A stretch of 64,000 bases of DNA, taken from the UHGV virus genome UHGV-0141439. The stretch is one strand, 5' to 3'. This DNA is from a virus. Shown here piece after piece: positions 8,799 through 49,800 of this stretch. The position numbers were made by a program, and so were the translations under genes. The notes beneath the pieces are model-generated. The model worked only from the letters and a program-made list of their open reading frames with translations. It was not told the origin of the DNA and did no database searches. Numbering within the stretch: position 1 is the first letter of the stretch; each line of letters opens with the position of its first letter.

Positions 8799-9452
8799 TC
8801 AAAGTATCACGGTATCTTCATCAACTTCTTTCCCAGTCAGTGTCTTTGACTGGGAGGTGCCTGCTTTAACTTTTTCATGCCCAATAATGGACAGGAACGA
8901 AGCGAGTATGCCTGTTTTTTGCTCTTTCTCGACTGTACCGGTCATCTGCTCTACGTAATCCGCACTGGCTACATTGTGGTATACGGTCGCGTAGCAACAC
9001 AGGATCATCAAAATATGCTCCGGCCTGATATCCTGCCAGTTCACCCGGTAGACTTCTTCTCCGTTACCGTTGTATTCGGTGTCAACGATGGAGTCAGGGA
9101 TTTCGAAAGCACCTTTGTTATTTTGCGGCAGGGATAATAGCTTCTGGAGTTTTAACTCTCTGTATCTTTCCATCCCGACGATGATTGCTGCTCTGCCATC
9201 GGCATGACGGGTCTTGAGAGTCACCTGGCTTGCTCCGGTGCCAGCGGAGATCGTTGGCGTAATTTCGTCTACCAGTACCTTAAATTTGCTTTTCCGCAGG
9301 GCTGCTATAGCTGGAGGAATTTTTTGCTTTTGCTCCAATGCTGACGCGGGAAGGGGTTTTACTTCGTTAATAATGAGAGCACCGTCTTTCAGTATTGCAG
9401 TGAGCATTTGAGGCTTGCTGGTGGTCAGGCTGAATATTGCGATCTTTTCCAT
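8799..9452 (-). CDS. Hypothetical protein
   Basis: Track ORF 8799-9494; best start is the ATG at 9452 (MEKIAIFSL...) after a GGAGGAAGG RBS. Confidence 0.5.
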   Translation of the reverse strand: MEKIAIFSLTTSKPQMLTAILKDGALIINEVKPLPASALEQKQKIPPAIAALRKSKFKVLVDEITPTISAGTGASQVTLKTRHADGRAAIIVGMERYRELKLQKLLSLPQNNKGAFEIPDSIVDTEYNGNGEEVYRVNWQDIRPEHILMILCCYATVYHNVASADYVEQMTGTVEKEQKTGILASFLSIIGHEKVKAGTSQSKTLTGKEVDEDTVIL

Positions 9453-9503: not shown

Positions 9504-9720
9504 TGCTTTGGCGTTATGACTCCCTACCGCGCTTCGGCTGAAAGTTAATCGTCAAAAGAACCTTCAACGGGAGCCGTTAGCGCGATGGATTATGTGCAGT
9601 TTGTGATTTCCAAAATAGTGTCAACCACTTTTGGTGGATTTTATTTTTTAACCGAAATTTGGCCTAAATCATGTTTATGTAGTTAATTGTTTTTATAACA
9701 TAAAACTTCATTTTGTTTGC

Positions 9721-10344
9721 ATGAAGGATGGTGTAGTGAAGTTAAGGGCTTTAGGGGCCGCGCTCGCGGCTATGTTGGGATGCGTATCTGCTAATACTGC
9801 CAATGCAACTGCGTTACCTGCACAATTCAGGGCAGGGCAGCAGGTTATGAATAACGCTGGTGGAGATCATTCACAAGCGGCCATTATGGACTTTTGCAAG
9901 AGGGAGGGCATTCCATTACGGCCTGTTGGAACTCAGTTTATTGGTAAAACTGACTTTTGCGTTTTTGCATATACAGCATATCTGACGGACAAAGCTATAA
10001 CAAAAACAGGTTATTCAACCAAAGATACTCTTTCCAGATTAAGTCAGGGATGGCAGCAATTCGAAGTGTATCGCCAGCAAGGATTAGGTGAGTTATTGCA
10101 ACCTCTTTTTATGCTTGCGTTGGTGCCAGAGGGGCAGCAATTTTTGGTTAAAAAGGGAATGCTTCGCCAAAGTGATATTGCCGGGTTCGATAGCATGATG
10201 GCTTATGAGCGCAAACTAACCGAGCAGCGAAATAAAAAACCATCTGCTTCATGTGTGCAAAGTAAAACAGCAGAATACAGTGCAGTAGCCGGGCCTTTAG
10301 CCAAACAAATGGCAGAGCAATGGTGTAAAAAATACGGGCAATAA
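9721..10344 (+). CDS. Secreted protein or lipoprotein
   Basis: 207 aa; N-terminal signal peptide with a possible lipobox (AAMLGC). Confidence 0.45.
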   Translation: MKDGVVKLRALGAALAAMLGCVSANTANATALPAQFRAGQQVMNNAGGDHSQAAIMDFCKREGIPLRPVGTQFIGKTDFCVFAYTAYLTDKAITKTGYSTKDTLSRLSQGWQQFEVYRQQGLGELLQPLFMLALVPEGQQFLVKKGMLRQSDIAGFDSMMAYERKLTEQRNKKPSASCVQSKTAEYSAVAGPLAKQMAEQWCKKYGQ

Positions 10345-11312: not shown

Positions 11313-11633
11313 TTTGACACCCCCAGCGCGAGTAAAGAATGCAGATTATCGCGTGAGTGGCGGACAACGAGTGATGGGAAAAGACAGTAGCTGTTCATAG
11401 TGTAGTGACTCCTTGCTTTCGGAGCCGCCTTCGACTGTTCCACGGTCTGGTGGCGGCGCAATAAAGGCTGGAACACCGTGAGTCAACGGGGGCTTTTCAG
11501 CCACCTATATTGCACCGCCATAGGTATAGCGGCGGCAATAATACGAAAAACTAAACAGTTTGTCTCAAAAAGTTGACCGGTGTGCCAATCGGTAGTGAAT
11601 GTACATCGGAGAAATTTACAATTCAACTTAAAA

Positions 11634-11650
11634 TGTTAGAAAACTAATTT
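11634..11650. promoter_or_regulatory. 17-bp operator-like site TGTTAGAAAACTAATTT
   Basis: Matches the window-wide consensus; overlaps the ref stop codon. Confidence 0.5.
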
Positions 11651-12222: not shown

Positions 12223-12270
12223 GATGGCAGTCTCTTACTTTTCAACGATTTTTCTATGATTGATCAAAAT

Positions 12271-12300
12271 TGTTAGATATTCAAAATTGATTTTCTAACA
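12271..12300. promoter_or_regulatory. Paired operator-like sites TGTTAGA-N16-TCTAACA
   Basis: Read directly; sits in the divergent region between ref and the 12495 gene. Confidence 0.6.
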
Positions 12301-12494
12301 CAAAATATTAATATCATTCCTGATAACTGTTTGGAGGACATGATGCTTATAGCTTTAAGTGCGATCCACCAGCCATCTGTGAATGAAATTGGCCTGTTCT
12401 ATGTGTTGTTTTTCGGGGCGTTGGCGCTACTTGAGCTTGGTATTGAGCTTTTCGCAGTGCTTATGTTTTGCGTCACGATTTTGGGGAAATTTTG

Positions 12495-16334: not shown

Positions 16335-16366
16335 GCCGGGTTACATCGTTTACGCGCTCAAAAGTG

Positions 16367-16396
16367 TGTTAGATTGTTGATTTTAATTTTCTAACA
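16367..16396. promoter_or_regulatory. Paired operator-like sites TGTTAGA-N16-TCTAACA
   Basis: Read directly; about 45 bp upstream of the 16439 start. Confidence 0.6.
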
Positions 16397-16438
16397 TATT
16401 ATTTTACCGCTCGGAACAAAACAGAGTCGGTATGCATT

Positions 16439-22371: not shown

Positions 22372-22494
22372 CGGCAAGATGGGGGAGAAATGTGATTAGC
22401 CCCCAGCGTGGCGCGCCTACAAACCCAGCTTTCACAAACTATGCCTTTTCAATGTATACTGTATGAATAAACAGTATCATTAAGGTAAAACGCT

Positions 22495-22884
22495 ATGGGC
22501 TTCCCTTCTCCTGCGGCGGATTATGCAGAGAGCCGCATTTCTCTTGATCAGCAACTAATCAGACATCCTTCCGCGACCTACTTCATGCGGGCGGCAGACA
22601 GCCATCACCGTGAGGGAATATTGCAAGGTGCTTTGCTGGTGGTTGATTCCTCACTTACTCCGGTTGATGGTTCACTGCTTATATGCGCTATGGAGGGTGA
22701 ATATCGCATAAAGAGATACAGGAAGTATCCGCGCCAGCACCTGGAGGATTTAAGCACCGGGAAGAAAGAGGCGTTACCAGTAGATGACGATGGATACACG
22801 GGCAGTAATGCTGTTTTTGGTGTGATCACTCATGTCATCAATGATGCCCGAAGTGGGGAGTTTGATTATAGACCTGTGATTTAA
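22495..22884 (+). CDS. humD: UmuD'-like protein (HumD-type)
   Basis: Begins GFPSPAADY...HPSATYF, i.e. at the processed UmuD' N-terminus; Ser/Lys region retained. Confidence 0.75.
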   Translation: MGFPSPAADYAESRISLDQQLIRHPSATYFMRAADSHHREGILQGALLVVDSSLTPVDGSLLICAMEGEYRIKRYRKYPRQHLEDLSTGKKEALPVDDDGYTGSNAVFGVITHVINDARSGEFDYRPVI

Positions 22885-22897
22885 GGCGCATAAAGAA

Positions 22898-22925
22898 GCC
22901 CGCCAGACCAGGCGGGCTTTTTGTT
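22898..22925. terminator. Rho-independent terminator after humD
   Basis: GCCCGCC-AGACCA-GGCGGGC followed by TTTTTGTT. Confidence 0.65.
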
Positions 22926-22929
22926 GATA

Positions 22930-24024
22930 TCATTCAATGATTTTTTCGGCTGTCAGCCAGCTAATTTCGTGCCTGTCTTTCGGCGGTTTTAGCATGTGAG
23001 CATATTCAGCGACATGCTCCCACGGAATTGTTTTTGCCCACTCAACGATAGCATTGTGATCTGCAGTGAAGAGTGGAATAGTGTGCGATTTCAACCATTC
23101 TAATGTCGTGACGCCATGTTTTTTGGCGTGGTGCTGCGCATGATGCCGGGCTATCACTCGTAATGGCATTGTCCATTCACTACCATCAGGCATCGAAAAG
23201 CGCATTGTCTTCGGCATATCTGATTCAAGAACAGCCTCCCTAATACCAGGGAACTCACCAAGAATCATACGACGATAGTCATCACTATTTCGCCCGCCAT
23301 ACCTTTCGGCAAAATGATCAAGATATTCTTGGGTAATAAATGGTGAATCCTCCGCACTCAGCTTAATGGCTTTATATACACCACTCGGATTATCTTCAGC
23401 TAAAGCACGTCCATGATGTGAATCATAAAAAAAGCCTATTTCCTCTGGTGACGGAATTGAAGTGAGCAATATGCGTGAATCACCACTAGTCATGCTTGCC
23501 CACACAATGCTGTATGCCCGATCGCTGATATGTGCGGAATCCACAATAATGAATAAAAGATGGTCGGCGTAGTGACCTGCAATGCTATCTTCATAGTTAA
23601 GGCGGTAGTTACAAAAGCACATTCCCCAAAATTCATTGAACATCAGACCGCTATCACCGACCTTAAAATACTCAATGATAAAAGGTTGTTTTTTCAGCAA
23701 TGCCTCCCAACATTGCCACACATATGCAACAATTCCTCTTTTGCAAACATTTGATTTTGGATAAACAATTACTGTCCGGGAATCAGGATACATAATCGTA
23801 TAAAGGGTACTAATAACAGCAAGCACTTGCGGTCGTCCGATCCCATACGGAGTGGTGACAGTAGCTTTTGCATTATTGGGCTGTATAGCTTCAACAATTT
23901 GTTGTTGCTGGTGGCTTAAATCAATATCAAACAATTCTTTTGCTGCCAGTACCCAATTGTCTTTATATTTCTCCACCAGCGACAGCCAGCGCGGATCTTT
24001 ATAAATATTGCTCTTAGTCGCCAT
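22930..24024 (-). CDS. PacB paralogue: terminase-large-subunit-like ATPase domain with degenerate Walker motifs and a different His-rich C-terminus
   Basis: Collinear with PacB at 29172-30680 (DPRW, SHQQQ, HLLxI(V/L)D, FYDSHH, YGGR...GxFP); Walker A GHGTGKS is replaced by PYGIGRP and DEAS by DSAH. Start at Met98 of the track ORF. Confidence 0.5.
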   Translation of the reverse strand: MATKSNIYKDPRWLSLVEKYKDNWVLAAKELFDIDLSHQQQQIVEAIQPNNAKATVTTPYGIGRPQVLAVISTLYTIMYPDSRTVIVYPKSNVCKRGIVAYVWQCWEALLKKQPFIIEYFKVGDSGLMFNEFWGMCFCNYRLNYEDSIAGHYADHLLFIIVDSAHISDRAYSIVWASMTSGDSRILLTSIPSPEEIGFFYDSHHGRALAEDNPSGVYKAIKLSAEDSPFITQEYLDHFAERYGGRNSDDYRRMILGEFPGIREAVLESDMPKTMRFSMPDGSEWTMPLRVIARHHAQHHAKKHGVTTLEWLKSHTIPLFTADHNAIVEWAKTIPWEHVAEYAHMLKPPKDRHEISWLTAEKIIE

Positions 24025-24781
24025 CTGCCACTTCCTTAACTTCTTCTTTGGCCTGTTCTGCAATCGCCGCACGGCATTTCGCCCTGGCCGTAGCGATTGC
24101 TTCAGCACGCACATCATCAGGAATCGTTGACGTGATATACATATCCAGTTCTTCGGCGCGGAACACTGTTTGGTCCAGATATTCGCGTAGCATCCAGGTA
24201 AATTCGAAATCACACGCGATAATCTCTGCGCTACCTTCTGCACCATTTGGGAAATGAATAAAAGCCTGTTTAGCCAAACCGATAACACGACATGCGGTTG
24301 CCAAAACAGCGGCAACCAGGTTTACATTTTCACACGCTACGGGCTGATTAACGCCGGAGATTACTCCATTTAACTGTCGGTTATATGGAAGGTAGTTTGA
24401 GATGCGTTCTACGCGCCATGTGCCAGTCAGGCTGCCATTCTTAAAGATAATTGGTGTAACGGATAGCCCAAGCTCGCGTATAAGTCGTTGCGCTATAGCA
24501 GGATCATTAAACATGTCTAATGCTACACATTCGAAAGACTGTGCAAGGGTAAACAGTTCTTCCAGAGAGTAGTCTTTGCCCCTGGCGGTGATGTAACGAT
24601 GAACGCCGCTTTCTGCATCACTCCATATAGCTACGCCATGCTCTTCATTCAGCTCTTCATTAAAGCCGAGATACGTCATGATAGTACGTTCAATCGTGTC
24701 AAACGGCAGTGACATGTCGGCGTTAACAGCCACCAGCAGGCCATTACGCAAGCGGTATTGAATTGCTTTAGTATTTTCCAC
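24014..24781 (-). CDS. Hypothetical protein
   Basis: 255-aa ORF; overlaps the downstream start. Confidence 0.4.
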   Translation of the reverse strand: MENTKAIQYRLRNGLLVAVNADMSLPFDTIERTIMTYLGFNEELNEEHGVAIWSDAESGVHRYITARGKDYSLEELFTLAQSFECVALDMFNDPAIAQRLIRELGLSVTPIIFKNGSLTGTWRVERISNYLPYNRQLNGVISGVNQPVACENVNLVAAVLATACRVIGLAKQAFIHFPNGAEGSAEIIACDFEFTWMLREYLDQTVFRAEELDMYITSTIPDDVRAEAIATARAKCRAAIAEQAKEEVKEVADGD

Positions 24782-26575: not shown

Positions 26576-26633
26576 AGCACCCTCCTAAATAGGCGAGGGT
26601 ACTTTACAGCAAAGACGTTAATCTAAAAAGATG

Positions 26634-26650
26634 TGTTAGAAATTTAATTT
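26634..26650. promoter_or_regulatory. 17-bp operator-like site TGTTAGAAATTTAATTT
   Basis: Exact consensus; overlaps the cre stop. Confidence 0.5.
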
Positions 26651-27677
26651 ACGAATCCATCAGGCGGCTATTAGCCCCCACAGACACGCCGCCACGGCGA
26701 AGATACCGCATAAGTGTTTCCGGTTTCTTCCAGGTTCCTTCCTGCATGATCTCCACCATAGACACCTGCTTTTCAGCCATATCAATAGCGGCCCCGACGC
26801 GTGCACTATGCCCGGTCCACGTCCGGTATCTTCCTTTGTTTGGCGTAGCATCTCTTTTATTCAGCAACACCCAGGCGTCGCTGAATATTTTCTCCATTGC
26901 AGGTGCAGTAAGGGGCGTTGTCGTGATCCTGGCCTTATTGCTACGGTGTATCGGCGGGAACAGCACTGCGTCAGGATGTTCGCGAAGCCCGGAAACATCC
27001 AGCCAGTCATTCAGCACAGCGGTAGTGCGACGGGAAAGCACCTTATCAAGCCCGGCGGCGGTCGTTATTGTCTTCGTGTGTGAAATATGTAGCGTGACAG
27101 TGTCACCTGTTTGGTCCAGATCTCCTACACGAATACGCGAGATTTCCGACATACGCATCAGCGTATTGTATGCAACAAAGAGAAAAGCCCGGTTGCGCAG
27201 GTCCACCAGCCGTTCTGACCTGGACAACAGGACGTCGAGCAGTTTCAGATCGTCCCACCGCAGCGGTATAGCCTGGCCTGTTCGTTCGCCTTTTTCAGTT
27301 GCCGCTTCGCGCCGGATGCGCCGCATAGCCAGAGAAACACTTTTATCATCCGAAAGTGGCGGAAGGCCACAATGCGAAAGCAGCATGTTCAGCATGGCGT
27401 AGTGCTTATCAATGGTGGTCGAAGCCAGATCGGCATCATGCAGCTGAAGAAAATACTCGCGGGCCATTTCTGGTGAGATCGGAAACCAGGCAAGCTGGCG
27501 AGCGTGACACCAGCGCGCCCAGGAATGAAACACCAAACGGAGGTCGCGCAGAGTATTCGGCGCATAAGCTCCCTGGTCATTCATGAACCGCATAAAGTTT
27601 TCTGCGGCTTCCTGGTACTCTTTGCCAATGTTGCGCAGAAAACCACCGGAACTGCCAGAGATAATTAATTCACTCAT
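26649..27677 (-). CDS. cre: Cre-type tyrosine recombinase
   Basis: 342 aa, collinear with P1 Cre (WFP..PE..R(E/D)YLL, VSL(A/V)MRRIR, AYNTL(M/L)R..EI.RIRV.D, W(T/S)GHSARVGAA.DMA, EIMQ.G.W); lox-like site upstream. Confidence 0.85.
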   Translation of the reverse strand: MSELIISGSSGGFLRNIGKEYQEAAENFMRFMNDQGAYAPNTLRDLRLVFHSWARWCHARQLAWFPISPEMAREYFLQLHDADLASTTIDKHYAMLNMLLSHCGLPPLSDDKSVSLAMRRIRREAATEKGERTGQAIPLRWDDLKLLDVLLSRSERLVDLRNRAFLFVAYNTLMRMSEISRIRVGDLDQTGDTVTLHISHTKTITTAAGLDKVLSRRTTAVLNDWLDVSGLREHPDAVLFPPIHRSNKARITTTPLTAPAMEKIFSDAWVLLNKRDATPNKGRYRTWTGHSARVGAAIDMAEKQVSMVEIMQEGTWKKPETLMRYLRRGGVSVGANSRLMDS

Positions 27678-27828: not shown

Positions 27829-27862
27829 CTAACTTTAAATAATGCCAATTATCTAAAGTTAG
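27829..27862. other. lox-like site: 13-bp inverted repeats around an 8-bp spacer (CTAACTTTAAATA-ATGCCAAT-TATCTAAAGTTAG)
   Basis: Read directly; 12 of 13 arm positions are symmetric; about 150 bp upstream of cre; same 34-bp architecture as loxP but different sequence. Confidence 0.6.
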
Positions 27863-28034
27863 AAATTTAGGAATTTTTTTCCTTTCCGCGCAGATGGGCA
27901 ATGCATTGCTGGTGTGGGCTTTAAGTTATGCCTGGCAGTTTTTAAGCAGAATTTTCTAAATTGGATGATAAAAAAATGCATCTTGATCCTTTACTCACCC
28001 TGTTATTCGGCATAGATTTGTCATAGTAATTTTA

Positions 28035-28051
28035 TGTTAGAAAACTAAATC
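28035..28051. promoter_or_regulatory. 17-bp operator-like site TGTTAGAAAACTAAATC
   Basis: 12 bp upstream of the 28063 start codon. Confidence 0.5.
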
Positions 28052-28062
28052 GAGTAGGAATA

Positions 28063-29100
28063 ATGAGTAAGAAGTCGATCGAGAAAGAGTACAAACGGTT
28101 CCTGCAAACCGCTGAACGGTGGAAAGAGCTGGTGGTCGCAAACTCTGTTTTCCATGATACCAGTTATTCCGGCGAGGAATTCCGCCATGTTGCACTAACA
28201 CATGATCAGAATGTGCTAGAAGAAGCTGAAAAGTGCCTCACAGAATGGAAAGCCTTTGTTGACTTGTGCCGTAACGCTGACGGCAAAGCGTCTAACATTG
28301 TTGAGTCTGTATATTCTCCGATCCCATTCATTATCGAGGACACAAATCAAAGCACGCATATTGTTGTGCAAAGCGCGACCACCACCCGCTCATTTACGCG
28401 CGAAAATCTGCTCAAAAAATATGATGCAATTATAAAGAAAAGCCTGAAAAACAAGATATTTTCGCAGATTGTTGGTGCACTTGAAGAAGAGCGCCGTTTT
28501 TTCGCATCAGAACCTGAAGGGGAAGTTTACCGGGCGCGCAAAGATGGATACACAGATGTAGTGCTTACAACAAACATTGAAGGCAGCAATGCTCTGTCAC
28601 GATTCAGGGTAGGCGCACACGGAGCCTTAGTGTTCGCAAAACTTCCGAACACCACAGTGCCCGTTGTTAATAATGTCGGCGAACGTCGCAGCATTACTAT
28701 TTATTCTGGGGTTGAGTCGATACCTTGCGGCCTGCTTGGTGACTTTAGTCTCTATCGCGTTCGCGATCTGGAGAAACACCAACCAAGCTATGTTGCGAAG
28801 TCATACATCTTGCGAAACATCGACATCCGCAATGAGAGCTTAAAGAACAAATCAGCCAAAATGCTTGAGGAAGCCGATCCGGCTATTCGCCATATCATTG
28901 AGCGTAAAATACAGACAGCACGCGAAGCGATGGCGAGACTGAATAAAATGGATCTGGAGTTGTTAGACGTAATGATGACATCCGGAGATGACCTGACAGG
29001 CATAAAACTGACAGACGCGCGGAAAAGATACGGTAAAACCATAGAAGAACGTTACGGGTTCACTTTCTCCCAAACACAGCACGCCGCTAAACTCTGGTAA
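28063..29100 (+). CDS. Hypothetical 345-aa protein; candidate C1-type immunity repressor by position only
   Basis: Convergent with pacB, next to lox and cre (the place c1 occupies in P1), with an operator-like site over its promoter; no sequence motif recognised. Confidence 0.4.
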   Translation: MSKKSIEKEYKRFLQTAERWKELVVANSVFHDTSYSGEEFRHVALTHDQNVLEEAEKCLTEWKAFVDLCRNADGKASNIVESVYSPIPFIIEDTNQSTHIVVQSATTTRSFTRENLLKKYDAIIKKSLKNKIFSQIVGALEEERRFFASEPEGEVYRARKDGYTDVVLTTNIEGSNALSRFRVGAHGALVFAKLPNTTVPVVNNVGERRSITIYSGVESIPCGLLGDFSLYRVRDLEKHQPSYVAKSYILRNIDIRNESLKNKSAKMLEEADPAIRHIIERKIQTAREAMARLNKMDLELLDVMMTSGDDLTGIKLTDARKRYGKTIEERYGFTFSQTQHAAKLW

Positions 29101-29171
29101 TCACAAGCCCCGCATTGCCGGGGCTTTATCCGGTGCGCCGTAAAACCCCGTCCTTCAGGGCGTGGAGGATG

Positions 29172-30680
29172 TCAAATATCCAGATCTGGCATTTCTACAT
29201 CTGCAAGAACCTGATCGCGGAAGGTAGCCATTTCAGCGCCGATATCTTCATTAGCAGGAACATAGTCCACCAGCATTGTAAAGCAGTAGGTATCCCATCG
29301 GTCAGGTGATTTGATGTTCAGCTTTTGCCGCATGTGCTCCTTGCGCATCATCGCCATCTTCCCTTCTTCATTAAGTAAAAAGGGGATTTTTGACGCTTGC
29401 TCTGCCGTTTTAGGGTCGCTGTCTATTCGCATACGACCTGACTTTATGGCATCACGAGCCATAATATTTGCGTAGGCACGCTGGTTAACAAAACGCTCCT
29501 TGTCTTTGTTCGAAAACATGGGTTTCCCCCACCGAATCCGTACCGGATTAGCCCCACGGCGCACCAGCTGCGCACAGGTATCTGAACCAAAACCGTCTGC
29601 GTCAACCGCGATTGTAATATTCGGGTATTTATCCGGCGTGCATTCGTTGTATATAAAGTCAGCAAAAGCCAGCGGGTCCATAGTCCCTGGCATTTCCATT
29701 ACCTTAAAGTTAACAACACGCCGCTTTTCCCGGTGACCAGACACTTTACAGATATTAAGAACTGACTTGTCTCGCCCGTTACCAACGTCAGCAGTAGCCA
29801 CCCATCCCCAGTTTTTCTCCAACAACACCTTGCGCCGCGCAGCGCGATCGCATTCATCACGACCAAGCAAATAGCCGTTAATCTCCCGAGGAAACTGACC
29901 AAGAACCTTGACCATGTACTCAATAGAATCGCGCCCGCCATATTCTAGGAGTTTCTGCCTGATGAATTGTGGTGTGACGAACGGTGATTCTTCTGAGTTA
30001 AGAACAATTGCTGTCCAGATCCCTTTCGGGTTGTCTGGGGTTTTAGCTTGAGAATGGTGCGAATCGTAGAAATAACCACTTGGCCTTGTTGGCTGGGATA
30101 GCATCAACATTCGGTTATCTTCTTCAGTCAGAGCGCCAGTCATTACGCCGATCGCTTTATCAGATATACCTGATGCTTCATCCAGAATTAGAAGCAAATG
30201 TGCCGCGTGCTCCCCCGCCAGAGCTTCTTCGTTACCGAGTCGATAGCCTTTGCAGAGAACTTCCCAGATCCCCTTTCGAGAGCGTTCATAAAACATGGTG
30301 TCAGACAGGACAAAATAGGTCTGTAACCACCCATGACGCTTAACGGCATTCGCCCAATACTGTTTAACGTATTTGAATACACCTGTCTTAACCTGACCTA
30401 TTTTGTTAGCAACAATGATGACACGGGCATCGGGGAACAGAATCAAATAAATCAGCAACAACATAGCCGTTAGCGACGATTTCCCTGTACCGTGACCAGA
30501 GGTAACAGTGGTTCTGCTCCCTTTTTGCTGTACGGACTGGATAATCTCCTGCTGCTGGTGGGAGGGAAACATCCCGAATATATCAACAACAGCCTGGGTA
30601 AAGTTGTAGCGGTATTTGATTACCATATCGCGCCAGCGTGGATCGCTGGTGACGCATTTAATCTTGCGCCCACCAGCCAT
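29172..30680 (-). CDS. pacB: Terminase large subunit (PacB-type)
   Basis: 502 aa; Walker A SGHGTGKSS, Walker B LLILDEAS; follows the pacA-like gene. Confidence 0.75.
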   Translation of the reverse strand: MAGGRKIKCVTSDPRWRDMVIKYRYNFTQAVVDIFGMFPSHQQQEIIQSVQQKGSRTTVTSGHGTGKSSLTAMLLLIYLILFPDARVIIVANKIGQVKTGVFKYVKQYWANAVKRHGWLQTYFVLSDTMFYERSRKGIWEVLCKGYRLGNEEALAGEHAAHLLLILDEASGISDKAIGVMTGALTEEDNRMLMLSQPTRPSGYFYDSHHSQAKTPDNPKGIWTAIVLNSEESPFVTPQFIRQKLLEYGGRDSIEYMVKVLGQFPREINGYLLGRDECDRAARRKVLLEKNWGWVATADVGNGRDKSVLNICKVSGHREKRRVVNFKVMEMPGTMDPLAFADFIYNECTPDKYPNITIAVDADGFGSDTCAQLVRRGANPVRIRWGKPMFSNKDKERFVNQRAYANIMARDAIKSGRMRIDSDPKTAEQASKIPFLLNEEGKMAMMRKEHMRQKLNIKSPDRWDTYCFTMLVDYVPANEDIGAEMATFRDQVLADVEMPDLDI

Positions 30681-32044
30681 TAGTCATCCTCCGGCGGTTC
30701 TATCGCAATATCATCATCTCCGGCGTCATACCCTGCATCTGATGCATCATAATCACCGTAAATTTCAGCCGTTGCCGAAGGGTCAATGTCCAACTCTTCA
30801 TCGTTGGCCTCGAATTCCCCAGCCTTACGCTCGCCATTGTGGTCGTAATCTCCGCACCCCAGATCTTCAACAATGGTTGCCACATCCGCCCGGCGCTCTG
30901 CCAGCCATTGCGGATGGTTAGCCTGAAGCGATGCAAACTCCTTCGCTTCTTTGTCCAGCTGTTCATCATCAACATCATTGATGTCAGAAACTGGAGGTTC
31001 GAGAAGAGTGATAGCTTTCGCCGCGCGCGCCGCGAGGATAGCCGGGACACTGACACCCTGACGCTCGATGTATTCAGCAACACCGATATCGTCCAGCTCC
31101 TCGCGCTCACGCATACGTATAGCGGCGGCGATAACTCTGGCTGCGCGTGCGTCAGCGCCAATGCGATATTCAATCTCTTTGCCACGCTGTTCGGCCTGTA
31201 GGCGTGCTAATTCGAGTTTTTCTCTGGCCTCGGCCTCTCTGAATGCTTGCTGGCGAGCACCCTGACGAAGTTTTTCATCACCCTGTCGCAGCTTTTGTTC
31301 GGACTGATATATCGCTGCCAACCTACTGATAAAATCGTTCATGTAGTAGGCCGCGTCACTGATTAGACCGAGAAGTCGCTGCCCAGGGTGCATTCCTTCT
31401 GGCTGTTCATCACCCAGGGCGTCTATCTCCGCCTGTAGGCGTTCGGCCTCCTGATCAACAATGCTTTGGTACTGAAGTGCGCGTTCTTGCGCCATTTGAA
31501 TTGCTAACCGCAGGTGCTCTTCTGCGCCGTTCTTCATCATGTCGCGAGCCACACTCGTAGTGGGCAACGTGGCACGCTGCACAGCACCGCCAGGGATCAT
31601 TGCTGAAGATCCCTCGATTTTTGAGGCGCATTTATCTTCGGTGGGGATCATTTTCGCCATTTTTTCGCGCAATGATCTCCTGACAGATTCTTTTATCTCA
31701 TTGTTATTATTTGCATTATTTTCATGATCCGAAGTTTTCTTTCTCGGCATACTTCGGAAAGAACCTGTGCCCTGCGAATTGTCAATTTCTGTAAATTTTG
31801 TTGTTTCTGTACCCTCTTCTGGTCTTTTTTTTGCTCTTCCTGCCCGTTTTTTTTGAGGTGATTTGGTGCTTTTTTTTGTAGTCTTCACCTGCGACCGCAC
31901 CTCATTTTTTTTCATATTGAGATGCTTTCTGGCGGTATTGAAGCTAAGGTCGTGTTGCTCGCAGTATTCCTTTACGGTGATCCCTTTTTCTTCACGCAAC
32001 GCTATAAATTTGGCGCGGTGCTCTTCCCAATTAACCAGACTCAT
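30680..32044 (-). CDS. pacA: Terminase small subunit (PacA-type) with acidic C-terminus
   Basis: 454 aa; N-terminal HTH-like segment; stop overlaps the pacB start; contains a GATC cluster. Confidence 0.55.
   Translation of the reverse strand: MSLVNWEEHRAKFIALREEKGITVKEYCEQHDLSFNTARKHLNMKKNEVRSQVKTTKKSTKSPQKKRAGRAKKRPEEGTETTKFTEIDNSQGTGSFRSMPRKKTSDHENNANNNNEIKESVRRSLREKMAKMIPTEDKCASKIEGSSAMIPGGAVQRATLPTTSVARDMMKNGAEEHLRLAIQMAQERALQYQSIVDQEAERLQAEIDALGDEQPEGMHPGQRLLGLISDAAYYMNDFISRLAAIYQSEQKLRQGDEKLRQGARQQAFREAEAREKLELARLQAEQRGKEIEYRIGADARAARVIAAAIRMREREELDDIGVAEYIERQGVSVPAILAARAAKAITLLEPPVSDINDVDDEQLDKEAKEFASLQANHPQWLAERRADVATIVEDLGCGDYDHNGERKAGEFEANDEELDIDPSATAEIYGDYDASDAGYDAGDDDIAIEPPEDD
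31595..31729. other. Cluster of five GATC sites (TGATC(C/T) repeats in both orientations) inside pacA: candidate pac site
   Basis: GATC at 31595, 31608, 31646, 31674 and 31726; GGGATCATT occurs twice. Confidence 0.4.
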
Positions 32045-32433
32045 AAAGCAACACCACGCTTTTTAACGGCGGCATTCCACAGCTTATTCGCCATGTCCAC
32101 CAGCTCTCGTTGCTCTTTTCGCGCCTGTTCGACTGATTTCCTGCTACAGTTTTTAACCAGTAAGCTACCGTATTCAGGGGTGCGCCCGCGCACCTTGAAC
32201 TGATATCCGTTCAGGCCATGCAACCAGTATTTCCGTGGGTAAACACGATCATCAAGCTCACAAATAGCTCGGCTTGACCGCACAAAATGCCGAATGATGT
32301 TGGTTACACTTACTCGTGAAACATGAAGGTGAGGATATTTTTCTTTAGCTAGAGTGGTGATTTCGGTGACTGTCAGATAGCAGTCAGCCCTAATCATGAT
32401 ATCCGCAATTTCTGCGCTGCTGATATGCTCCAT
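32041..32433 (-). CDS. Lpa-like late-promoter activator candidate (by position upstream of pacA)
   Basis: 130-aa ORF overlapping the pacA start (ATGA); an operator pair lies upstream. Confidence 0.4.
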   Translation of the reverse strand: MEHISSAEIADIMIRADCYLTVTEITTLAKEKYPHLHVSRVSVTNIIRHFVRSSRAICELDDRVYPRKYWLHGLNGYQFKVRGRTPEYGSLLVKNCSRKSVEQARKEQRELVDMANKLWNAAVKKRGVAL

Positions 32434-32511
32434 TAATCCCCCAGGCAGGAAATGACCGAGGGGATGATAATGAGAATGTTATTTCTGTATAGACTGGCAA
32501 AAAGTTGGTTA

Positions 32512-32541
32512 TATTAGAAAATTAATTCCATTCATCTAACA
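32512..32541. promoter_or_regulatory. Paired operator-like sites TATTAGA-N16-TCTAACA
   Basis: Read directly; upstream of the Lpa-like gene. Confidence 0.55.
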
Positions 32542-32934
32542 CTACCAGCGAGATAAGCGAACGACGTGTTTTACCTTAGCGATCCACTTACCACGTGAGT
32601 TATTAATTACGGCCTGCGCCACCTTTAAGCTGACTTCAAAATCAGCCTTACGACCATCAGAATCCACCAGCGTTGCACCGTCTATTTCCGGCAGGCTTAA
32701 ATAATCCTGTTCTACCTCTAATGGCATTGACGGCTCTCTGAATGGTGTCAATTGCCGAGCTTTCCAGATAAAGCGAACTCTCAATCCCCTATAAGCCATT
32801 ACCATGTAGCCTGTTATCGTGCTCTTATGGCCTGCATCAGTACGCGCAGCATTACACGATACAATCTTACAGGTGACGATATTCCACTCCACGTTGGAGA
32901 CTTCGTGAATGCTTAATTTTGTTGTCTCGTACAT
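32542..32934 (-). CDS. Hypothetical protein
   Basis: 130-aa ORF. Confidence 0.4.
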   Translation of the reverse strand: MYETTKLSIHEVSNVEWNIVTCKIVSCNAARTDAGHKSTITGYMVMAYRGLRVRFIWKARQLTPFREPSMPLEVEQDYLSLPEIDGATLVDSDGRKADFEVSLKVAQAVINNSRGKWIAKVKHVVRLSRW

Positions 32935-33962: not shown

Positions 33963-34038
33963 TGGTGGCCCCTACCGGACTTGAACCGGTGACCGTGCGA
34001 TTATGAGTCGCCAGCTCTAACCACTGAGCTAAAGGGCC
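33963..34038 (-). tRNA. tRNA-Ile2/Met type, anticodon CAU
   Basis: Hand-folded 76-nt cloverleaf with encoded CCA; closely resembles E. coli ileX. Confidence 0.8.
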
Positions 34039-34208
34039 AGATTACTGTTAATTCCGCTTACGCTTTTTGCCAGAACCGCGTAAGGCTTTTGCCGCTTGCT
34101 CGATCCCATATGCAACCACCAGCAGAAATAAAAATGTCCAACCAGGGTTCTTATCGGCAAAGGCCCAAAAATCCATCACTTGCAGCTACCTTTTAAGACA
34201 AAACGCCA

Positions 34209-34223
34209 TTGCTGTTAGATTGC
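34209..34223. other. Hairpin CCTGG-TGCCT-CCAGG
   Basis: Second member of the covarying hairpin set. Confidence 0.4.
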
Positions 34224-34450
34224 GGTGCCTGGTGCCTCCAGGTGACGTTAACCAGTTAACAATTAACGCCGGGATGTTTGATTTAACCACTAAGGAGGAT
34301 TGTTTTAACTGTTCCGCGTGCGCTTAGCCGCATTCACCGCAATGGTAAGAGCACTTGGCTGGCTGGGCGGCGATGACGCCTGTACGCATTTGGTGATCCG
34401 GTTCTGCTTCCGGCATTCGCTTAATTAGCCAAATACTCTTAACGTTGCGC

Positions 34451-34537
34451 TGGCGGAGAGTAATGGAATCGAACCATCATCGCTTGCGCAATGGGACGGT
34501 TTTCAAGACCGCTTGAGCACCATGCTCCCTACTCTCC
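34451..34537 (-). tRNA. tRNA-Ser, anticodon UGA (class II, long variable arm), tentative
   Basis: 87 nt; GGAGAGT/ACTCTCC acceptor stem, loop CUUGAAA, GGTTCGATTCC T-arm, encoded CCA; D-arm spacing is atypical. Confidence 0.55.
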
Positions 34538-34682
34538 GGCCGTTGTGGTGGCCGGTACTGAATCTCCGGCATACGGTGCAGCCAATTAGGACTACGGACG
34601 ATCACCGCTCGCGAAAGGGAAGATTTGCGGCCGCATTTCCCTAACATCCAAGAAAGCTATCGCATCAGTCTGCGAATCCACC

Positions 34683-34774
34683 ACAACGTTGAGAACACTG
34701 GTTGTCACGCTGCAACGCAACATTTATTCGTAGATTGGGATATGACCCCGTTACGTCAGTGTTCTCAACGTTGT
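34683..34774. repeat. Perfect 18-bp inverted repeat ACAACGTTGAGAACACTG with 56-bp spacer
   Basis: Arms at 34683-34700 and 34757-34774. Confidence 0.6.
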
Positions 34775-35002
34775 AGTACCGGTTACGGTTCCGGCCAGGC
34801 CTCTTCCTCAACGGGGTATTCTCCATACGGACTACCGTTTATTGGTCGTTCCTGCGGTTTATGTTGTGAAGCCAGATGCTTATCTTCTGGTTGCTTCAAA
34901 GAGCTGCACTTCATCACAACGGTAAGGGTACTTCGTAGGGATTCGAACCCTCTGCCAAGCACGGCGATCTCCGACGTCGCAAAATACCCTTACCTGTTGT
35001 GT

Positions 35003-35078
35003 TGGTGCCGATTAACGGACTCGAACCGCTGACATCCTGCTTACAAGGCAGGCGCTCTACCAACTGAGCTAAACCGGC
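35003..35078 (-). tRNA. tRNA-Thr, anticodon UGU
   Basis: Canonical 76-nt cloverleaf, loop CUUGUAA, encoded CCA. Confidence 0.8.
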
Positions 35079-35080
35079 AT

Positions 35081-35157
35081 TGGCGATGGTGGGTGGATTC
35101 GAACCACCGACCGACAGCTTAGAAGGCTGCTGCTCTATCCTACTGAGCTACACCATC
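35081..35157 (-). tRNA. tRNA-Arg, anticodon UCU
   Basis: Canonical 77-nt cloverleaf, loop CUUCUAA, encoded CCA. Confidence 0.8.
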
Positions 35158-35660
35158 ACTTGCCGGTTACGTCTCCGGCGAGGGCTTCCACCTCCGTATG
35201 CTTTTCGGCGCACCGCGCCCTGGCTGCAATTCGGTAACAGGGGATGCACAACCCTGGCTTCCAGCGTGATTAGCGCCTTCAGCATGACGGGATATACCCG
35301 TAACCAACAAACTTTCCCATATACCATCAAACAATGGCTGTTACGCGGGAGGGACGTAACAGGTAAGGGCGCTGACCAGAAAGACCTGACCCTTCTCATT
35401 CATCTGGTTAATCACACCAGCGCCCTTGCCTGTTATGCCTCCCCGTTCCCTAATACACAGACGGGGACACTCTGCGGTCGATTTTTTGACGGGGGACGAC
35501 TCATACCCCGTGGCGTCTGGCTTCTTAGGCCGCTACCATCATCAGATCATCGTTTGCATTTACTTTAATGGTCGGTTTCTAAACCGCCGCAAAGCCGCTA
35601 ACCATGACGAAAACCCTAAAAAAGCCCACCCGAAGATGGGCAAATACGCTACATCTCACA

Positions 35661-35739
35661 CAAGAAAGAAGCCGACTGCCTGAGCTGGATTCACTTTCAA
35701 ATGCCCGCAGAAAGGGAACACAAGTCGGCTTCTTTCTTG
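35661..35739. repeat. Perfect 17-bp inverted repeat CAAGAAAGAAGCCGACT with 45-bp spacer
   Basis: Arms at 35661-35677 and 35723-35739. Confidence 0.6.
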
Positions 35740-35856
35740 ATGCGGCACTCTCTCCGCCCGTCACCGCTCTGTCTCGGTTGTCGCGTTTGCCACGCCAGCC
35801 ATAACGAGGTTTAAAGTCTTTGCACGTTTCCATCACTCGACTGCCGTCTGTGGCTG

Positions 35857-35871
35857 TTCGTTGCAGCGGGG
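35857..35871. other. Hairpin GGGGG-TGCCT-CCCCC
   Basis: Third member of the covarying hairpin set; followed by the palindrome GGGGATATCCCC. Confidence 0.4.
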
Positions 35872-35956
35872 GTGCCTCCCCCTGGGGATATCCCCGGCCT
35901 TACCCCATTCTTTCAAGACACAATGCAAGGCCGCATCCGCATAGGTGCATTACCGC

Positions 35957-36021
35957 AACATTAAGGAGACTTAGGGCAAAAGGTAATCGCCACAAAAAAA
36001 TCCCTATGCCTCCTTAATGTT
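35957..36021. repeat. 12-bp inverted repeat AACATTAAGGAG with 41-bp spacer
   Basis: Arms at 35957-35968 and 36010-36021. Confidence 0.55.
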
Positions 36022-36030
36022 GAGGATGTG

Positions 36031-36088
36031 CATTGATGATGATTCGATGCGGCGAGTCCCGTTACTCTCTGCCGGACCATCATCAATG
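36031..36088. repeat. 11-bp inverted repeat CATTGATGATG with 36-bp spacer
   Basis: Arms at 36031-36041 and 36078-36088. Confidence 0.55.
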
Positions 36089-36221
36089 AACATCTTAAAA
36101 AGACCTTCCGTGGCTCAACATGTCTTGTCGTTTACTCCGTAAAGTGCTCTCTCTGAAACCACTTTACGCACTAAACCTGCTGAACTTTGGCTTGCTCGGT
36201 GCCAAAGCGAATCCCTGTATG

Positions 36222-36238
36222 CATGTAATTTTCTAACA
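36222..36238. promoter_or_regulatory. 17-bp operator-like site (reverse orientation)
   Basis: Plus strand CATGTAATTTTCTAACA. Confidence 0.45.
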
Positions 36239-36377
36239 CTTTAATTTGTTATTTGCTGGTGGGCGAACAACAACCAATAAGTGACTATCAAGCCCAGCAA
36301 GCGAAATGTGGCAACGCTCCACCAGCAAGGAAAATTCTAAGTTAAGTTACTCTCACAATCAATATGTTCGTTTGGTG

Positions 36378-36394
36378 AAATTAGATTTCTAACA
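36378..36394. promoter_or_regulatory. 17-bp operator-like site (reverse orientation), with a degenerate partner TGTTCGT 16 bp upstream
   Basis: Plus strand AAATTAGATTTCTAACA; overlaps the stop region of the 406-aa gene. Confidence 0.5.
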
Positions 36395-36396
36395 CA

Positions 36397-37617
36397 TTAT
36401 TTCCCATAAAGATCTTCTACGCCCCCATTCTTCTTGTCCCATTCGTTAGCCCACACCCGGCAGGCATCAATAATTTCTTGACGACGGTCGCCCTGCATAA
36501 AGGGGATGCTTTCATGAAAACTACTTGGGATACAGGCCACGCTGAATACGGTATCAAACGCAGTCTGTTTGATAGCTTCCAACGTCTCTGGGCGCATTTT
36601 CAATTCATCGATCGGCGCATCCTTAGAGTCCATAATCCGGCGATGCAGGCGCGGGAAATCAGTCTCCAGGTACGCCATAATTTTATCTGCCAGGCATTCG
36701 TCTATATCGGTATTCCAGTCCGTTTCGAAGCCGGGCAGGCGATAGTAAAGCGGCGTTCCCCATACTGATGGGATCACATCCATCGTCAGCAGGCGGTTGG
36801 TTCTAATTTGTTGATGGTAATTAGCCGTCAACAGAGCTTCACCACGCTGACCAGTCTCCGCAACCAGACCATGCGGGTACTCATGGATATAGGCAATAGC
36901 ATCCACCCCGTCATACATGAGCGGGAATGTCTCTGGCCTTTGTCCCATACCACAAGCGCGGTTCAGATCATGACCAAGCTGTGAGCACTCTCGTTTCAGC
37001 GTTTCAATAATGTTCTGCGCTGCTGCTAACTTTTTACGCAGTGTGACGCCTTCGCCTTGATACTTAATGCATTGCTGATTCAGCTCTGTTAAACGCTCTT
37101 TTAGTTCCCGACGCTCTCTTTTCAGCGCACGGTTATCCTTCTCCGCAACATCCAGTCGTTTTGACAGACTGGCTGGATAGTCTTTTTTGTAACGACTCAA
37201 ATCGGCTTCTGCGGATTTGCGCAGTGTGTTTGCCTGTTCAAGACGCGCTTCCAGATTGCCGATCTCACTACGCATATTCGCGGCAAATTGATTAACAGCA
37301 TTGCCAAGACTTTCAACTGTCGCTGATACGCCTGTGACTTGTGAAAAACGGATCAAGCCATCATTAACGGCTTGTTGATATTCCTCAAACTGATCCACCA
37401 GCTTGTTGTAATCAACCGTCCCTTCCTCAAGTAGCTGGTTGATCTCCGCGACCAGGTTATCAGTAGTGGCAATGACGCTCTCATGTAGCCGTCTAGACAG
37501 GTCATCCCCCGGATTCCGCTTTTGAATAAGGGCGATCTGTGTCCGCAGCGTTTCAATCGCGGCTGAGATGATTTCCAGATTAGAAGTATCAGTTTGTTGA
37601 CTCATTGCAGTTCCCAT
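36397..37617 (-). CDS. Hypothetical 406-aa protein, N-terminal coiled coil plus C-terminal globular domain, flanked by operator-like sites
   Basis: Track ORF; likely start at MSQQTD (37605); no recognisable catalytic motif. Confidence 0.5.
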   Translation of the reverse strand: MGTAMSQQTDTSNLEIISAAIETLRTQIALIQKRNPGDDLSRRLHESVIATTDNLVAEINQLLEEGTVDYNKLVDQFEEYQQAVNDGLIRFSQVTGVSATVESLGNAVNQFAANMRSEIGNLEARLEQANTLRKSAEADLSRYKKDYPASLSKRLDVAEKDNRALKRERRELKERLTELNQQCIKYQGEGVTLRKKLAAAQNIIETLKRECSQLGHDLNRACGMGQRPETFPLMYDGVDAIAYIHEYPHGLVAETGQRGEALLTANYHQQIRTNRLLTMDVIPSVWGTPLYYRLPGFETDWNTDIDECLADKIMAYLETDFPRLHRRIMDSKDAPIDELKMRPETLEAIKQTAFDTVFSVACIPSSFHESIPFMQGDRRQEIIDACRVWANEWDKKNGGVEDLYGK

Positions 37618-37627
37618 TGTTTTTGCA

Positions 37628-37644
37628 AAATTAGTTTTCTAACA
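37628..37644. promoter_or_regulatory. 17-bp operator-like site (reverse orientation) upstream of the 406-aa gene
   Basis: Plus strand AAATTAGTTTTCTAACA. Confidence 0.5.
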
Positions 37645-37719
37645 TATTTTATTAGTATGAGAACAAGATCGAAAGATGTGATAAACAAAAAACCCGCTAA
37701 TCGGCGGGTTTTTGAGCGG

Positions 37720-38230: not shown

Positions 38231-38722
38231 TTAATCAAGACAAACATATTCCGTGATAGCTTTTATGGCTTCAGCGGCACTGCGCGCCTCAAAGCAGTAG
38301 TAACCTGCTTCGGTGAGGCGAGTCATCCAGACGAGTTGTTCGGGAGTCAGGCGATTTCTCCCATGTTTCATCTCAATGCGCATTCCGTGGTATCCCCCAC
38401 AAGCAAGGTCTATAGAAAGATCGGGATATCCCTTCTTTTGGCCCTCTGCCACCATTTTTATTGCCGTCCTTATGCCTCGCAGACCGCCGTTTGGAGTGGC
38501 GTGTGTATGCTCATACACATAGCGCATATTGCGATACAACCAATCCAGGACGCGTACCTGCTCGTAATGCTCATGGTTCCTTTTGATTAGATCTGGGTTT
38601 TTCTCCAGTTCTCTGAGAGCTGCGGCATGTGGTGATGTTTCAGAATATTCACTGCGACGCCTTCTTTTTCTCGCTATTTTTCTAACACACCCATTGATAG
38701 TAAATAAGCGAAATAATAACAA
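38231..38722 (-). CDS. VRR-NUC domain nuclease (PD-(D/E)xK-type)
   Basis: EHYEQVRVLDWL...HATPNGG...GYPDLSIDLA...GMRIEMKHGRNRLTPEQLVWMTRLTEAGY matches the VRR-NUC pattern; start codon uncertain (TTG at 38722); an operator-like TCTAACA lies inside the 5' end. Confidence 0.5.
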   Translation of the reverse strand: MLLFRLFTINGCVRKIARKRRRRSEYSETSPHAAALRELEKNPDLIKRNHEHYEQVRVLDWLYRNMRYVYEHTHATPNGGLRGIRTAIKMVAEGQKKGYPDLSIDLACGGYHGMRIEMKHGRNRLTPEQLVWMTRLTEAGYYCFEARSAAEAIKAITEYVCLD

Positions 38723-38861: not shown

Positions 38862-39122
38862 TTAAAGGTTTATTTTATCCGGTTCGGATATTTCTGTGAT
38901 TGTCTTGTCGATTGCGATCAACCACCCTTCATAGGTTAAATCATCAACAAGCTCTACCAGTTTGTCTTCTGTATGAGGGAAGTATACCCAGCTCCAGCTC
39001 GCTGGGTTTTCTGCTTTTCGCAGCGTAAAAACCTTCTTGTAACGGTGAAACTCAAGGACATACCCCTTCGATATGGAATATTCCTTTAGGTCTTCGACCG
39101 TAAACCTACGATTCTTTCGCAT
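38862..39122 (-). CDS. Small hypothetical protein
   Basis: 86-aa ORF. Confidence 0.35.
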   Translation of the reverse strand: MRKNRRFTVEDLKEYSISKGYVLEFHRYKKVFTLRKAENPASWSWVYFPHTEDKLVELVDDLTYEGWLIAIDKTITEISEPDKINL

Positions 39123-48233: not shown

Positions 48234-48272
48234 AGTTACGGCCTCATTCGTAGGTTTAACAACCTGCGCCCC

Positions 48273-48453
48273 GCTGCTAAACGGGTGGCAGGACGTGACG
48301 GGGTTAGCAGACTGGCACGAATGAAACCAGCAGGCCGAAGCCTCCCCATCACGCCCCACCATAATTCGGGCGTAACGTGGTTTTACGGACACAAAAATAC
48401 CGCAATATCGGATATCTGCGGTTGTCCGCATTCGTATTCAGGCTGCTAAACCC
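48273..48453 (-). ncRNA. Candidate C4-like antisense-RNA control region
   Basis: On the minus strand GUUUAGCAGC occurs at 48453-48442 and 48282-48273 and its complement GUCUGCUAACCC at 48312-48301, giving alternative pairings just upstream of the icd RBS. Confidence 0.3.
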
Positions 48454-48576
48454 GGTCGCAGAATTTGCTACGACGACATGAATATAAGCCTGAAAACATG
48501 GAAGATCAACTAAAAATTTCAGCAATGGATGACTTCAGTCGATGATGCAGATCATACATTCCGATTTAGAAACAGC

Positions 48577-48593
48577 AAATTAATTTTCTAACA
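48577..48593. promoter_or_regulatory. 17-bp operator-like site upstream of the icd/ant module
   Basis: Plus strand AAATTAATTTTCTAACA; degenerate partner ATTTAGA 16 bp upstream. Confidence 0.5.
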
Positions 48594-48647
48594 CAAATTA
48601 TCGGGCGAGCATTTTCCGATCATTGGGATGCTTTGTAGACACACAGG

Positions 48648-49707: not shown

Positions 49708-49783
49708 CAGTCGCTACCGGAGCAGTGACCGCGATCCTACTCGATCACATCGGACAGGATCAACAGTGTATATAAATACACTA

Positions 49784-49800
49784 TGTTAGAAATTTAATTT
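49784..49800. promoter_or_regulatory. 17-bp operator-like site TGTTAGAAATTTAATTT
   Basis: Exact consensus; lies between the stop at 49811 and the terminator. Confidence 0.5.

Follow-up and report, generated by a model that had tools for sequence, protein, structure and literature searches.

The window, as we call the whole stretch of 64,000 nucleotides of viral DNA analysed here (UHGV virus genome UHGV-0141439), carries on its plus strand an open reading frame (ORF) for a protein of 345 amino acids (aa), which extends from an ATG at 28063 to a TAA stop codon (28063–29100). The locus raises the question of whether this gene encodes a master repressor comparable to C1 of phage P1 and, if so, which operators such a repressor would read. 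An earlier, sequence-only reading had proposed the gene as a candidate master repressor at the position that c1 occupies in P1. At the level of sequence, this proposal is supported by the orthology of the gene with c1 of phage D6 (90% aa identity), by homology with P1 C1, by its ImmC-like place, and by the positions of an operator-like motif. We conclude that the protein is very probably a C1-type master repressor of the lytic functions of a D6-like plasmid prophage, which would act like P1 C1 on an overlapping regulon through operators of another specificity, and which would limit its own expression. The same reading had started the locus at 28035. This coordinate is not the start of the gene; an operator-like site in front of the gene begins there.

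Identity and location of the gene

The c1 locus was found to be 88–90% identical to that of Escherichia phage D6. Some 22 E. coli plasmids of ~90 kb carry the segment 27700–29150 of the window with at least 99% identity, and other relatives occur in Salmonella and Shigella. Judged by its sequence, the window is a D6-like phage-plasmid, i.e., a plasmid prophage of E. coli. The 345-aa protein and D6 C1 (AAV84948 in AY753669, 2004; ASR76322, or D6_1, in MF356679, 2018) are equal in length (345 aa) and align without gaps at 90% aa identity. The D6 gene is annotated as c1, a phage repressor protein akin to P1 C1, in AY753669, and as a prophage repressor akin to P1 C1 in MF356679. The identity of the gene is thus already known: c1 of D6 has been annotated since 2004, and the proposal made from the sequence re-derived an existing annotation. 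Many copies of the gene in RefSeq plasmids are labelled 'hypothetical protein'.

As in P1 and P7, the gene occupies the ImmC position; like P1 c1, it lies next to a lox-type site and a recombinase gene and is convergent with pacB. The gene for the terminase large subunit, pacB (29172–30680, minus strand), is convergent with it, as had been read from the sequence; it lies at a distance of 71 nucleotides (nt) and is followed by pacA and lpa. On the other side, the neighbours had been named lox and cre. A lox-type site and a gene for a Cre homologue are indeed adjacent, but in this D6-like phage-plasmid they are rox and the gene for Dre, respectively. The dre gene (26649–27677, minus strand) encodes a Cre-homologous tyrosine recombinase of 342 aa, identified by the Pfam Phage_integrase domain and the D6 annotation of dre. 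The rox-type site, a 32-bp inverted repeat (TAACTTTAAATAATGCCAATTATCTAAAGTTA) at 27831–27862, was located by alignment to the annotated rox of D6; both dre and rox are ~200 bp upstream of c1. The right arm of the site has one T-to-C change relative to D6 rox, which leaves its arms imperfectly symmetric.

In D6, c1 has the same position between rox/dre and pacB. The divergence between the two elements at this locus consists of the 10% aa divergence in C1, a diverged stretch of 120 bp next to rox, and the single substitution in rox itself. The gene order int-rox-c1-pacB-pacA-lpa is common to the window, D6, and two further relatives, L008 and L009, in which C1 is only 53% and 50% identical, respectively.

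Homology with P1 C1

When the 345-aa protein was used in a tblastn search against 50,697 phage records, only D6 was matched, and P1 was not. Because tblastn reached D6 only, the D6 annotation needed checking, and profile methods were needed. In BLASTP against P1 C1 (283 aa, NC_005856), 20% identity was obtained over 239 colinear residues (E = 6e-8). Both proteins match phrog_1678 from end to end (7e-159 for the window protein and 2.6e-140 for P1 C1), and PF27008 (Phage_P7_repressor_C1) is carried by homologues of both. Alignment of the D6-type profile with the P1-type profile by hhalign gave a probability of 98.5% and an E-value of 3.3e-15 over 231 columns, corresponding to residues 7–242. The alignment to P1 C1, which had been suggested as a check on the identity of the gene, is therefore significant by both BLASTP and hhalign.

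When 1.84 billion representative proteins were searched with a profile, only 107 clusters were returned, among them a P1-type member at 5.5e-13. These clusters split by length into a long (~345–380 aa) and a short (~250–290 aa) class. A Pfam scan of the protein with a model set that lacks PF27008 gave no hit, and searches of PDB sequences with the protein or its profile returned nothing relevant. On these comparisons, the protein is a remote but real homologue of P1 C1 that belongs to the wider C1 family without being an equivalog. It is the sole C1 homologue in the window.

Conservation of the family extends from 96% identity to as little as 44%, and includes invariant residues. That the gene might be a decayed or functionless remnant is hardly worth entertaining in view of this conservation: the frame is intact, the locus is nearly unchanged in the ~22 plasmids mentioned above, and the promoter, operator and Shine–Dalgarno sequence of the gene are conserved as well.

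A family of asymmetric operator-like sites

A repeat search, followed by a count of the core, showed that the 8-mer TTCTAACA is present 12 times in the window, with shared flanks. The sites conform to an asymmetric motif of ~17 bp (consensus TGTTAGAAAAnTAATTT) and occur singly or as overlapping inverted pairs. A matrix of 19 nt was built from the window sites; it reads AAATTAnTTTTCTAACAyA, or TrTGTTAGAAAAnTAATTT in reverse complement. When the window was scanned with this matrix, 15 sites scored at least 14 bits, compared with 0.7 in shuffles, and 18 scored at least 12 bits, compared with ~2; nearly all occurrences of the motif lie between genes. In the annotated D6 genome, 20 sites reached 12 bits or more, and they are orthologous in position to those in the window. 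Among the D6 sites of at least 16 bits, 16 of 17 are intergenic, the intergenic share of the genome being 10.2% (p ~2e-15); shuffled intergenic DNA gives 0.07 sites at this threshold. The repeat search revealed no other motif family of comparable enrichment.

The positions of the motif are those expected of operators for C1. The motif precedes c1, lpa, c4-icd-ant, repL, ref and mat; in P1 or P7, control of these genes by C1 is known or annotated. P1 C1 has 22 operators with an asymmetric 17-bp consensus, and RepL and Lpa are under its control (PMC8546580). Annotated C1 operators of P1 are those at c1 (Oc1a–e), lpa (Olpa), ref (Oref) and mat (Omat), and P7 has Op(c4) at c4. Thus, P1, P7 and, in silico, the window have in common a large number of dispersed asymmetric sites of ~17 bp, both mono- and bivalent.

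In sequence, the two operator types differ. The P1 operator consensus ATTGCTCTAATAAATTT had no match with up to three mismatches in the 64-kb window, and the D6-type motif was absent from the 12 kb of P1 examined. Five of the sites in the window are bivalent, with two inverted copies overlapping by the AATT-rich end, an arrangement like that of the bivalent Oc1ab of P1. When the sites are oriented by this pair geometry, the AT-rich end is common to D6-type and P1 operators (AAnTAATTT against AATAAATTT), whereas the other, specificity half is unlike that of P1 (TGTTAGAA against ATTGCTCT). An alternative register, pairing TTCTAAC with CTCTAAT, exists and would invert the pair geometry. A full-text literature search for the motif string, with the D6 papers of 2004 and 2018 outside its reach, found nothing relevant.

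Of all loci, c4 is the most informative on the motif as an operator type. Here, an inverted pair (48561–48595; 30.8 bits) lies upstream of the gene for the C4 antisense RNA (48281–48366, minus strand; Rfam C4) and the icd/antirepressor operon. The C4 region (48250–48494) is 91–97% identical to P1, P7 and SJ46, and this identity breaks off immediately ahead of the operator. In the corresponding position, P7 has a P1-type operator and the window has a D6-type pair, so that the c4-antirepressor operon of the window has its own operator type, unlike in the P1 circuit. From the sequences, this break (48250–48494 against 48495–48600) looks like a modular exchange of the operator along with the repressor type.

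It could be argued that the protein is a C1 homologue that binds something else, and that the TGTTAGAAAA motif is read by another phage or host factor. The low identity with P1 C1 (~20%) and the dissimilarity of the motif to the P1 operator would agree with such an arrangement. Against it, the motif is found where P1 and P7 have C1 operators, including the leader of the gene itself, and the window has neither a second C1 homologue nor another motif family enriched to a comparable degree. A role of the motif as an Lpa-dependent late-promoter element was ruled out, as the motif precedes lpa itself and early genes. We consider it improbable that another factor reads the motif, and favour the 345-aa protein as its reader.

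The remaining sites, with gene names taken from the D6 annotation, are as follows. An inverted pair found with the matrix at 32510–32542 is upstream of lpa (32041–32433, minus strand), and P1 has Olpa at the equivalent place. The site upstream of repL, the gene for lytic replication, is at 49782–49800 (minus strand, 28.9 bits; D6 22465–22483, between repL and pro). Between the divergent genes ref and orf88, an inverted pair was located by the matrix at 12269–12302, corresponding to Oref of P1. Another site is 3′ of ref (11632–11650, minus strand, 27.5 bits; D6 75978–75996). In D6, this site precedes a minus-strand operon with a second icd/antirepressor pair; no counterpart of that operon was detected in the window, where the segment 9779–11068 is without a D6 match. 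A site between mat and simB (9684–9702, plus strand, 17.7 bits; D6 72195–72213) corresponds to Omat of P1.

Further inverted pairs were found upstream of the hrdC-methylase operon (1803–1836, 24.4 and 18.2 bits; D6 64114–64147) and, by the matrix scan and with a D6 orthologue, between ppp and pdcB (16365–16398). A site at the 3′ end of dre (26632–26650, minus strand, 29.3 bits; D6 89946–89964) overlaps the dre stop codon and lies ahead of the orf117-orf116-dut operon. Two sites (36222–36240 and 36378–36396, plus strand, 22.6 and 28.6 bits; D6 8910–9084) lie between the tRNA genes and pmgS, in a gap without annotation. The site upstream of pmgS is at 37628–37646 (plus strand, 29.6 bits; D6 10315–10333), and one at the start of pmgM (38671–38689, plus strand, 18.0 bits) is just downstream of an 86-aa ORF described below.

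Control region of c1

The leader of c1 was aligned for four sequences, those of the window, D6, L008 and L009. The operator-like site of the window (28033–28051, plus strand, 26.2 bits; 17-bp site TGTTAGAAAACTAAATC at 28035–28051) is 12 nt before the ATG and is identical in D6; the 80 nt that comprise promoter, operator and Shine–Dalgarno sequence differ between the two at just three positions. The conserved blocks of the alignment are TTTTCTAA, CTTTACT, TA-ATT (17 nt past TTTACT), TTTATGTTAGAAAA (exactly 16 nt past the hexamer), the Shine–Dalgarno sequence and the start codon. The Shine–Dalgarno sequence of the window was read as AGGA (28056–28059, plus strand), of which AG-GG is kept in the relatives.

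Because the consensus scan found no promoter, that of c1 was placed by conservation. The probable promoter (27990–28018, plus strand) has TTTACT (27990–27995) as −35 hexamer and TAGATT (28013–28018) as −10 hexamer, with a spacer of 17 nt. It fits 8 of 12 consensus positions, which is under the threshold of the scanner. In all four sequences, the two hexamers are kept, as are their spacing of 17 nt and the 16 nt up to the operator, while the flanks diverge. The operator block TTTATGTTAGAAAA is invariant even in the relatives with only 50–53% identical C1; likewise, the geometry of −35, 17 nt, −10, 16 nt and TGTTAGAAAA persists across 50% divergence of the C1 protein. Read in this way, the transcript would start near 28025, and the operator would occupy approximately +10 to +26, between the promoter and the Shine–Dalgarno sequence.

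The operator-like site had been described as covering the promoter of the gene. A site is present in front of the ATG, but it sits just downstream of the promoter, which ends 16 nt before it. For the operator to occlude the promoter, as assumed in that description, the real promoter would have to be TTGTCA (28018–28023) and AAAACT (28041–28046) at a spacing of 17 nt, with the −10 hexamer inside the operator. Such a promoter has some attraction, as TTGTCA fits 5 of 6 positions of the −35 consensus, its −10 would be covered by the operator, and Pc1 of P1 is overlapped by Oc1ab. Yet AAAACT fits only 3 of 6 positions and TTGTCA is not conserved in L008 or L009, whereas TTTACT, the 17-nt spacer and TA(A/G)ATT are common to all four. 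Neither promoter was among the calls of the strict consensus scanner. We regard occlusion at c1 as rather unlikely, and prefer the conserved promoter with the operator downstream of it.

A degenerate partner site (GCAGAATTTTCTAAATTGG; 27946–27964, plus strand) is ~29 nt upstream of the −35 hexamer and is inverted with respect to the proximal site. Its TTTTCTAA block is present in all four sequences. In L008 and L009, it has the full consensus TTTTTCTAACA at the same spacing, whereas the window copy scores below 8 bits and that of D6 is degenerate too. The two sites that flank the c1 promoter are inverted and 87–89 bp apart in all four sequences, an arrangement that would allow bracketing or looping. 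The c1 leader of the window thus has one strong proximal and one degenerate operator, as against Oc1a–e in P1. In the metagenomic relative L009 (10001–10036), the ATG at which the gene caller began c1 lies within the operator (tATGTTAGAAAA), and the start that is conserved is a GTG located 36 nt downstream.

The interval of 200 bp between rox and the ATG has no ORF of more than 40 aa, and tblastn with Coi, ImcA and ImcB of P1 matched neither the window nor any part of the D6 genome (all E > 0.8). The observation that no coi- or imc-like genes lie between the gene and the lox-type site is thus borne out. P1 Lxc also had no homologue by tblastn in the window or in D6 (all E > 0.3, the Coi and Imc queries included). 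Unlike P1, then, the window has no coi, imcA or imcB upstream of c1 and no lxc homologue. A conserved ORF of 86 aa (38862–39122, minus strand) is located directly downstream of ulx, which is the position of lxc in P1, and is also present in D6, L008 and L009 (51–91% identical). As a diverged Lxc it was rejected: it had no match to Lxc in BLASTP, belongs to another PHROG and reached 1.8% in hhalign, so that it is a positional analogue only. The 86-aa ORF could be a non-homologous replacement of lxc, the C1 corepressor gene.

Predicted structure of the protein

The AlphaFold2 model of the 345-aa protein had a pLDDT of 86.7. Two parts may be distinguished: the C1 homology core (approximately residues 7–242), which represents the ~235 residues homologous with P1 and P7 C1, and a helical C-terminal extension (approximately residues 243–345) without counterpart in P1 C1. 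The extension is predicted to form two long helices and a small helical bundle, and its ~100 extra residues take the place of the short basic tail of the P1 protein. The C-terminal 103 residues, when searched alone, matched no other family. Pfam helix-turn-helix models, representing a feature of repressors of the lambda CI or Cro type, gave no hit with the protein at E-values up to 0.1.

The predicted fold is of the alpha+beta type and has its nearest likeness in Tus, the replication terminator protein (replication terminus site-binding protein) of E. coli. The best structural match of the model, obtained by two methods, was E. coli Tus (PDB 1ecr, 4xr0), with TM-scores of only 0.33–0.42, and the match was weaker for a model of P1-type C1. 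There was no significant sequence similarity between the two, comparison of the C1 profile with E. coli Tus by hhalign being not significant. Tus binds an asymmetric site as a monomer. The likeness is attractive because binding of a monomer to an asymmetric site has also been described for C1, although the function of Tus differs from that of the C1 repressor. A literature search, limited to the library that could be searched, found no paper connecting C1 with Tus. We consider the similarity of the predicted fold to Tus plausible, but not established.

Tentatively, and at odds that we would put somewhat short of even, P1- and D6-type C1 may share the Tus fold and act as monomeric clamps on asymmetric sites. 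The D6 branch would then have gained the helical module of ~100 residues and lost Coi and Lxc, and the module might have taken over their modulatory or looping roles. The match to Tus also brings up the possibility that the protein works mainly in the manner of Tus, as a polar roadblock that halts replication forks or polymerases in elongation at oriented sites, and not by repressing initiation; this we hold to be very unlikely.

Two residues of the long predicted beta-hairpin (strand 155–171), R157 and R159 (window 28531–28539), are invariant in both the D6-type and the P1-type families. In a non-significant hhalign alignment, they are placed opposite the Tus segment KLKIKRPVK. R157 and R159 are candidate DNA-contact residues.

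Proposed mode of action

By analogy with P1 C1, the protein would bind the ~15–18 dispersed asymmetric sites of ~17 bp with the consensus TGTTAGAAAAnTAATTT, and in this way most likely hold the prophage silent. Once bound, it would shut early and regulatory promoters, namely those of lpa, repL, the c4-icd-antirepressor operon, ref, mat and others. Shutting off lpa would keep all late genes off, and shutting off repL would prevent lytic replication. The protein would probably also limit its own synthesis through the site at approximately +10 to +26 of the c1 promoter.

Some of the results weigh against this reading of the protein as the repressor. Its pairwise identity to P1 C1 is only 18–20%, and with the NCBIfam model NF041318 (phage_rep_C1) it scored 23.3 bits (E = 3.8e-5) against a curated cut-off of 500, and so failed the cut-off. 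As the matrix was derived from the window, its use on D6 is no independent scan. No plus-strand promoter ahead of c1 was among the calls of the consensus scan. Because no homologue of Coi, ImcA/B or Lxc is detectable, regulation around the repressor differs from that in P1. Finally, we infer from sequence the binding of the motif by the protein, its binding as a monomer, the autoregulation and the immunity pattern. The gene and its synteny, the homology, the enrichment and positions of the motif, and the conservation of promoter and operator geometry were observed directly.

Other features of the window

Between c1 and pacB, a hairpin followed by TTTAT is a likely terminator (29105–29129, plus strand) by fold prediction. 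The hairpin itself (29105–29126) had a folding energy of −14.1 kcal/mol (z = −2.2) and was not among the calls of a strict terminator scan. A segment of 52 bp at 29126–29177, which spans the spacer between c1 and pacB together with the 3′ end of the latter, shows 98% identity to sequence within hypothetical genes of many Shiga toxin (Stx)-converting phages, including 933W and VT2-Sakai.

The ORF at 22930–24000 (minus strand) encodes a paralogue of the ATPase domain of the PacB terminase, with 38% identity over 255 aa to the PacB of the window (E = 6e-62). The paralogue lacks the nuclease domain; its Walker B is altered and its Walker A degenerate, with PYGIGRP in place of GHGTGKS. Most of it (window 22877–24040) is without a match in D6.

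Four minus-strand tRNA genes (Met-cat, Ser-tga, Thr-tgt and Arg-tct) are present at 33963–35157. The D6 record has three colinear tRNAs (Ser, Thr and Asn) on its plus strand, with Asn at the position of Arg-tct in the window and no counterpart of Met. The adjoining ~1.2 kb between the tRNA genes and pmgS (35158–36400), which is unannotated in D6, contains two operator-like sites and several inverted repeats (35932–36099, 35348–35444).

Significance of the D6-type repressor

The annotation of the gene is settled: what is called a 'hypothetical protein' in many RefSeq copies is a D6-type C1 repressor. The parts that merit following up are the operator map and the possible Tus-like fold. If true, a shared Tus fold would explain both the asymmetric operators of C1 and its want of a helix-turn-helix, and if confirmed, it would be the first structural rationale for the reading of asymmetric operators by P1 C1. 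The operator map probably represents the C1 regulon of a group of phage-plasmids that is widespread in E. coli, Salmonella and Shigella. It also predicts the immunity group: because the operator specificity differs and P1 operators are absent, the element is expected to share the immunity of D6 (homoimmune) and not that of P1 (heteroimmune).
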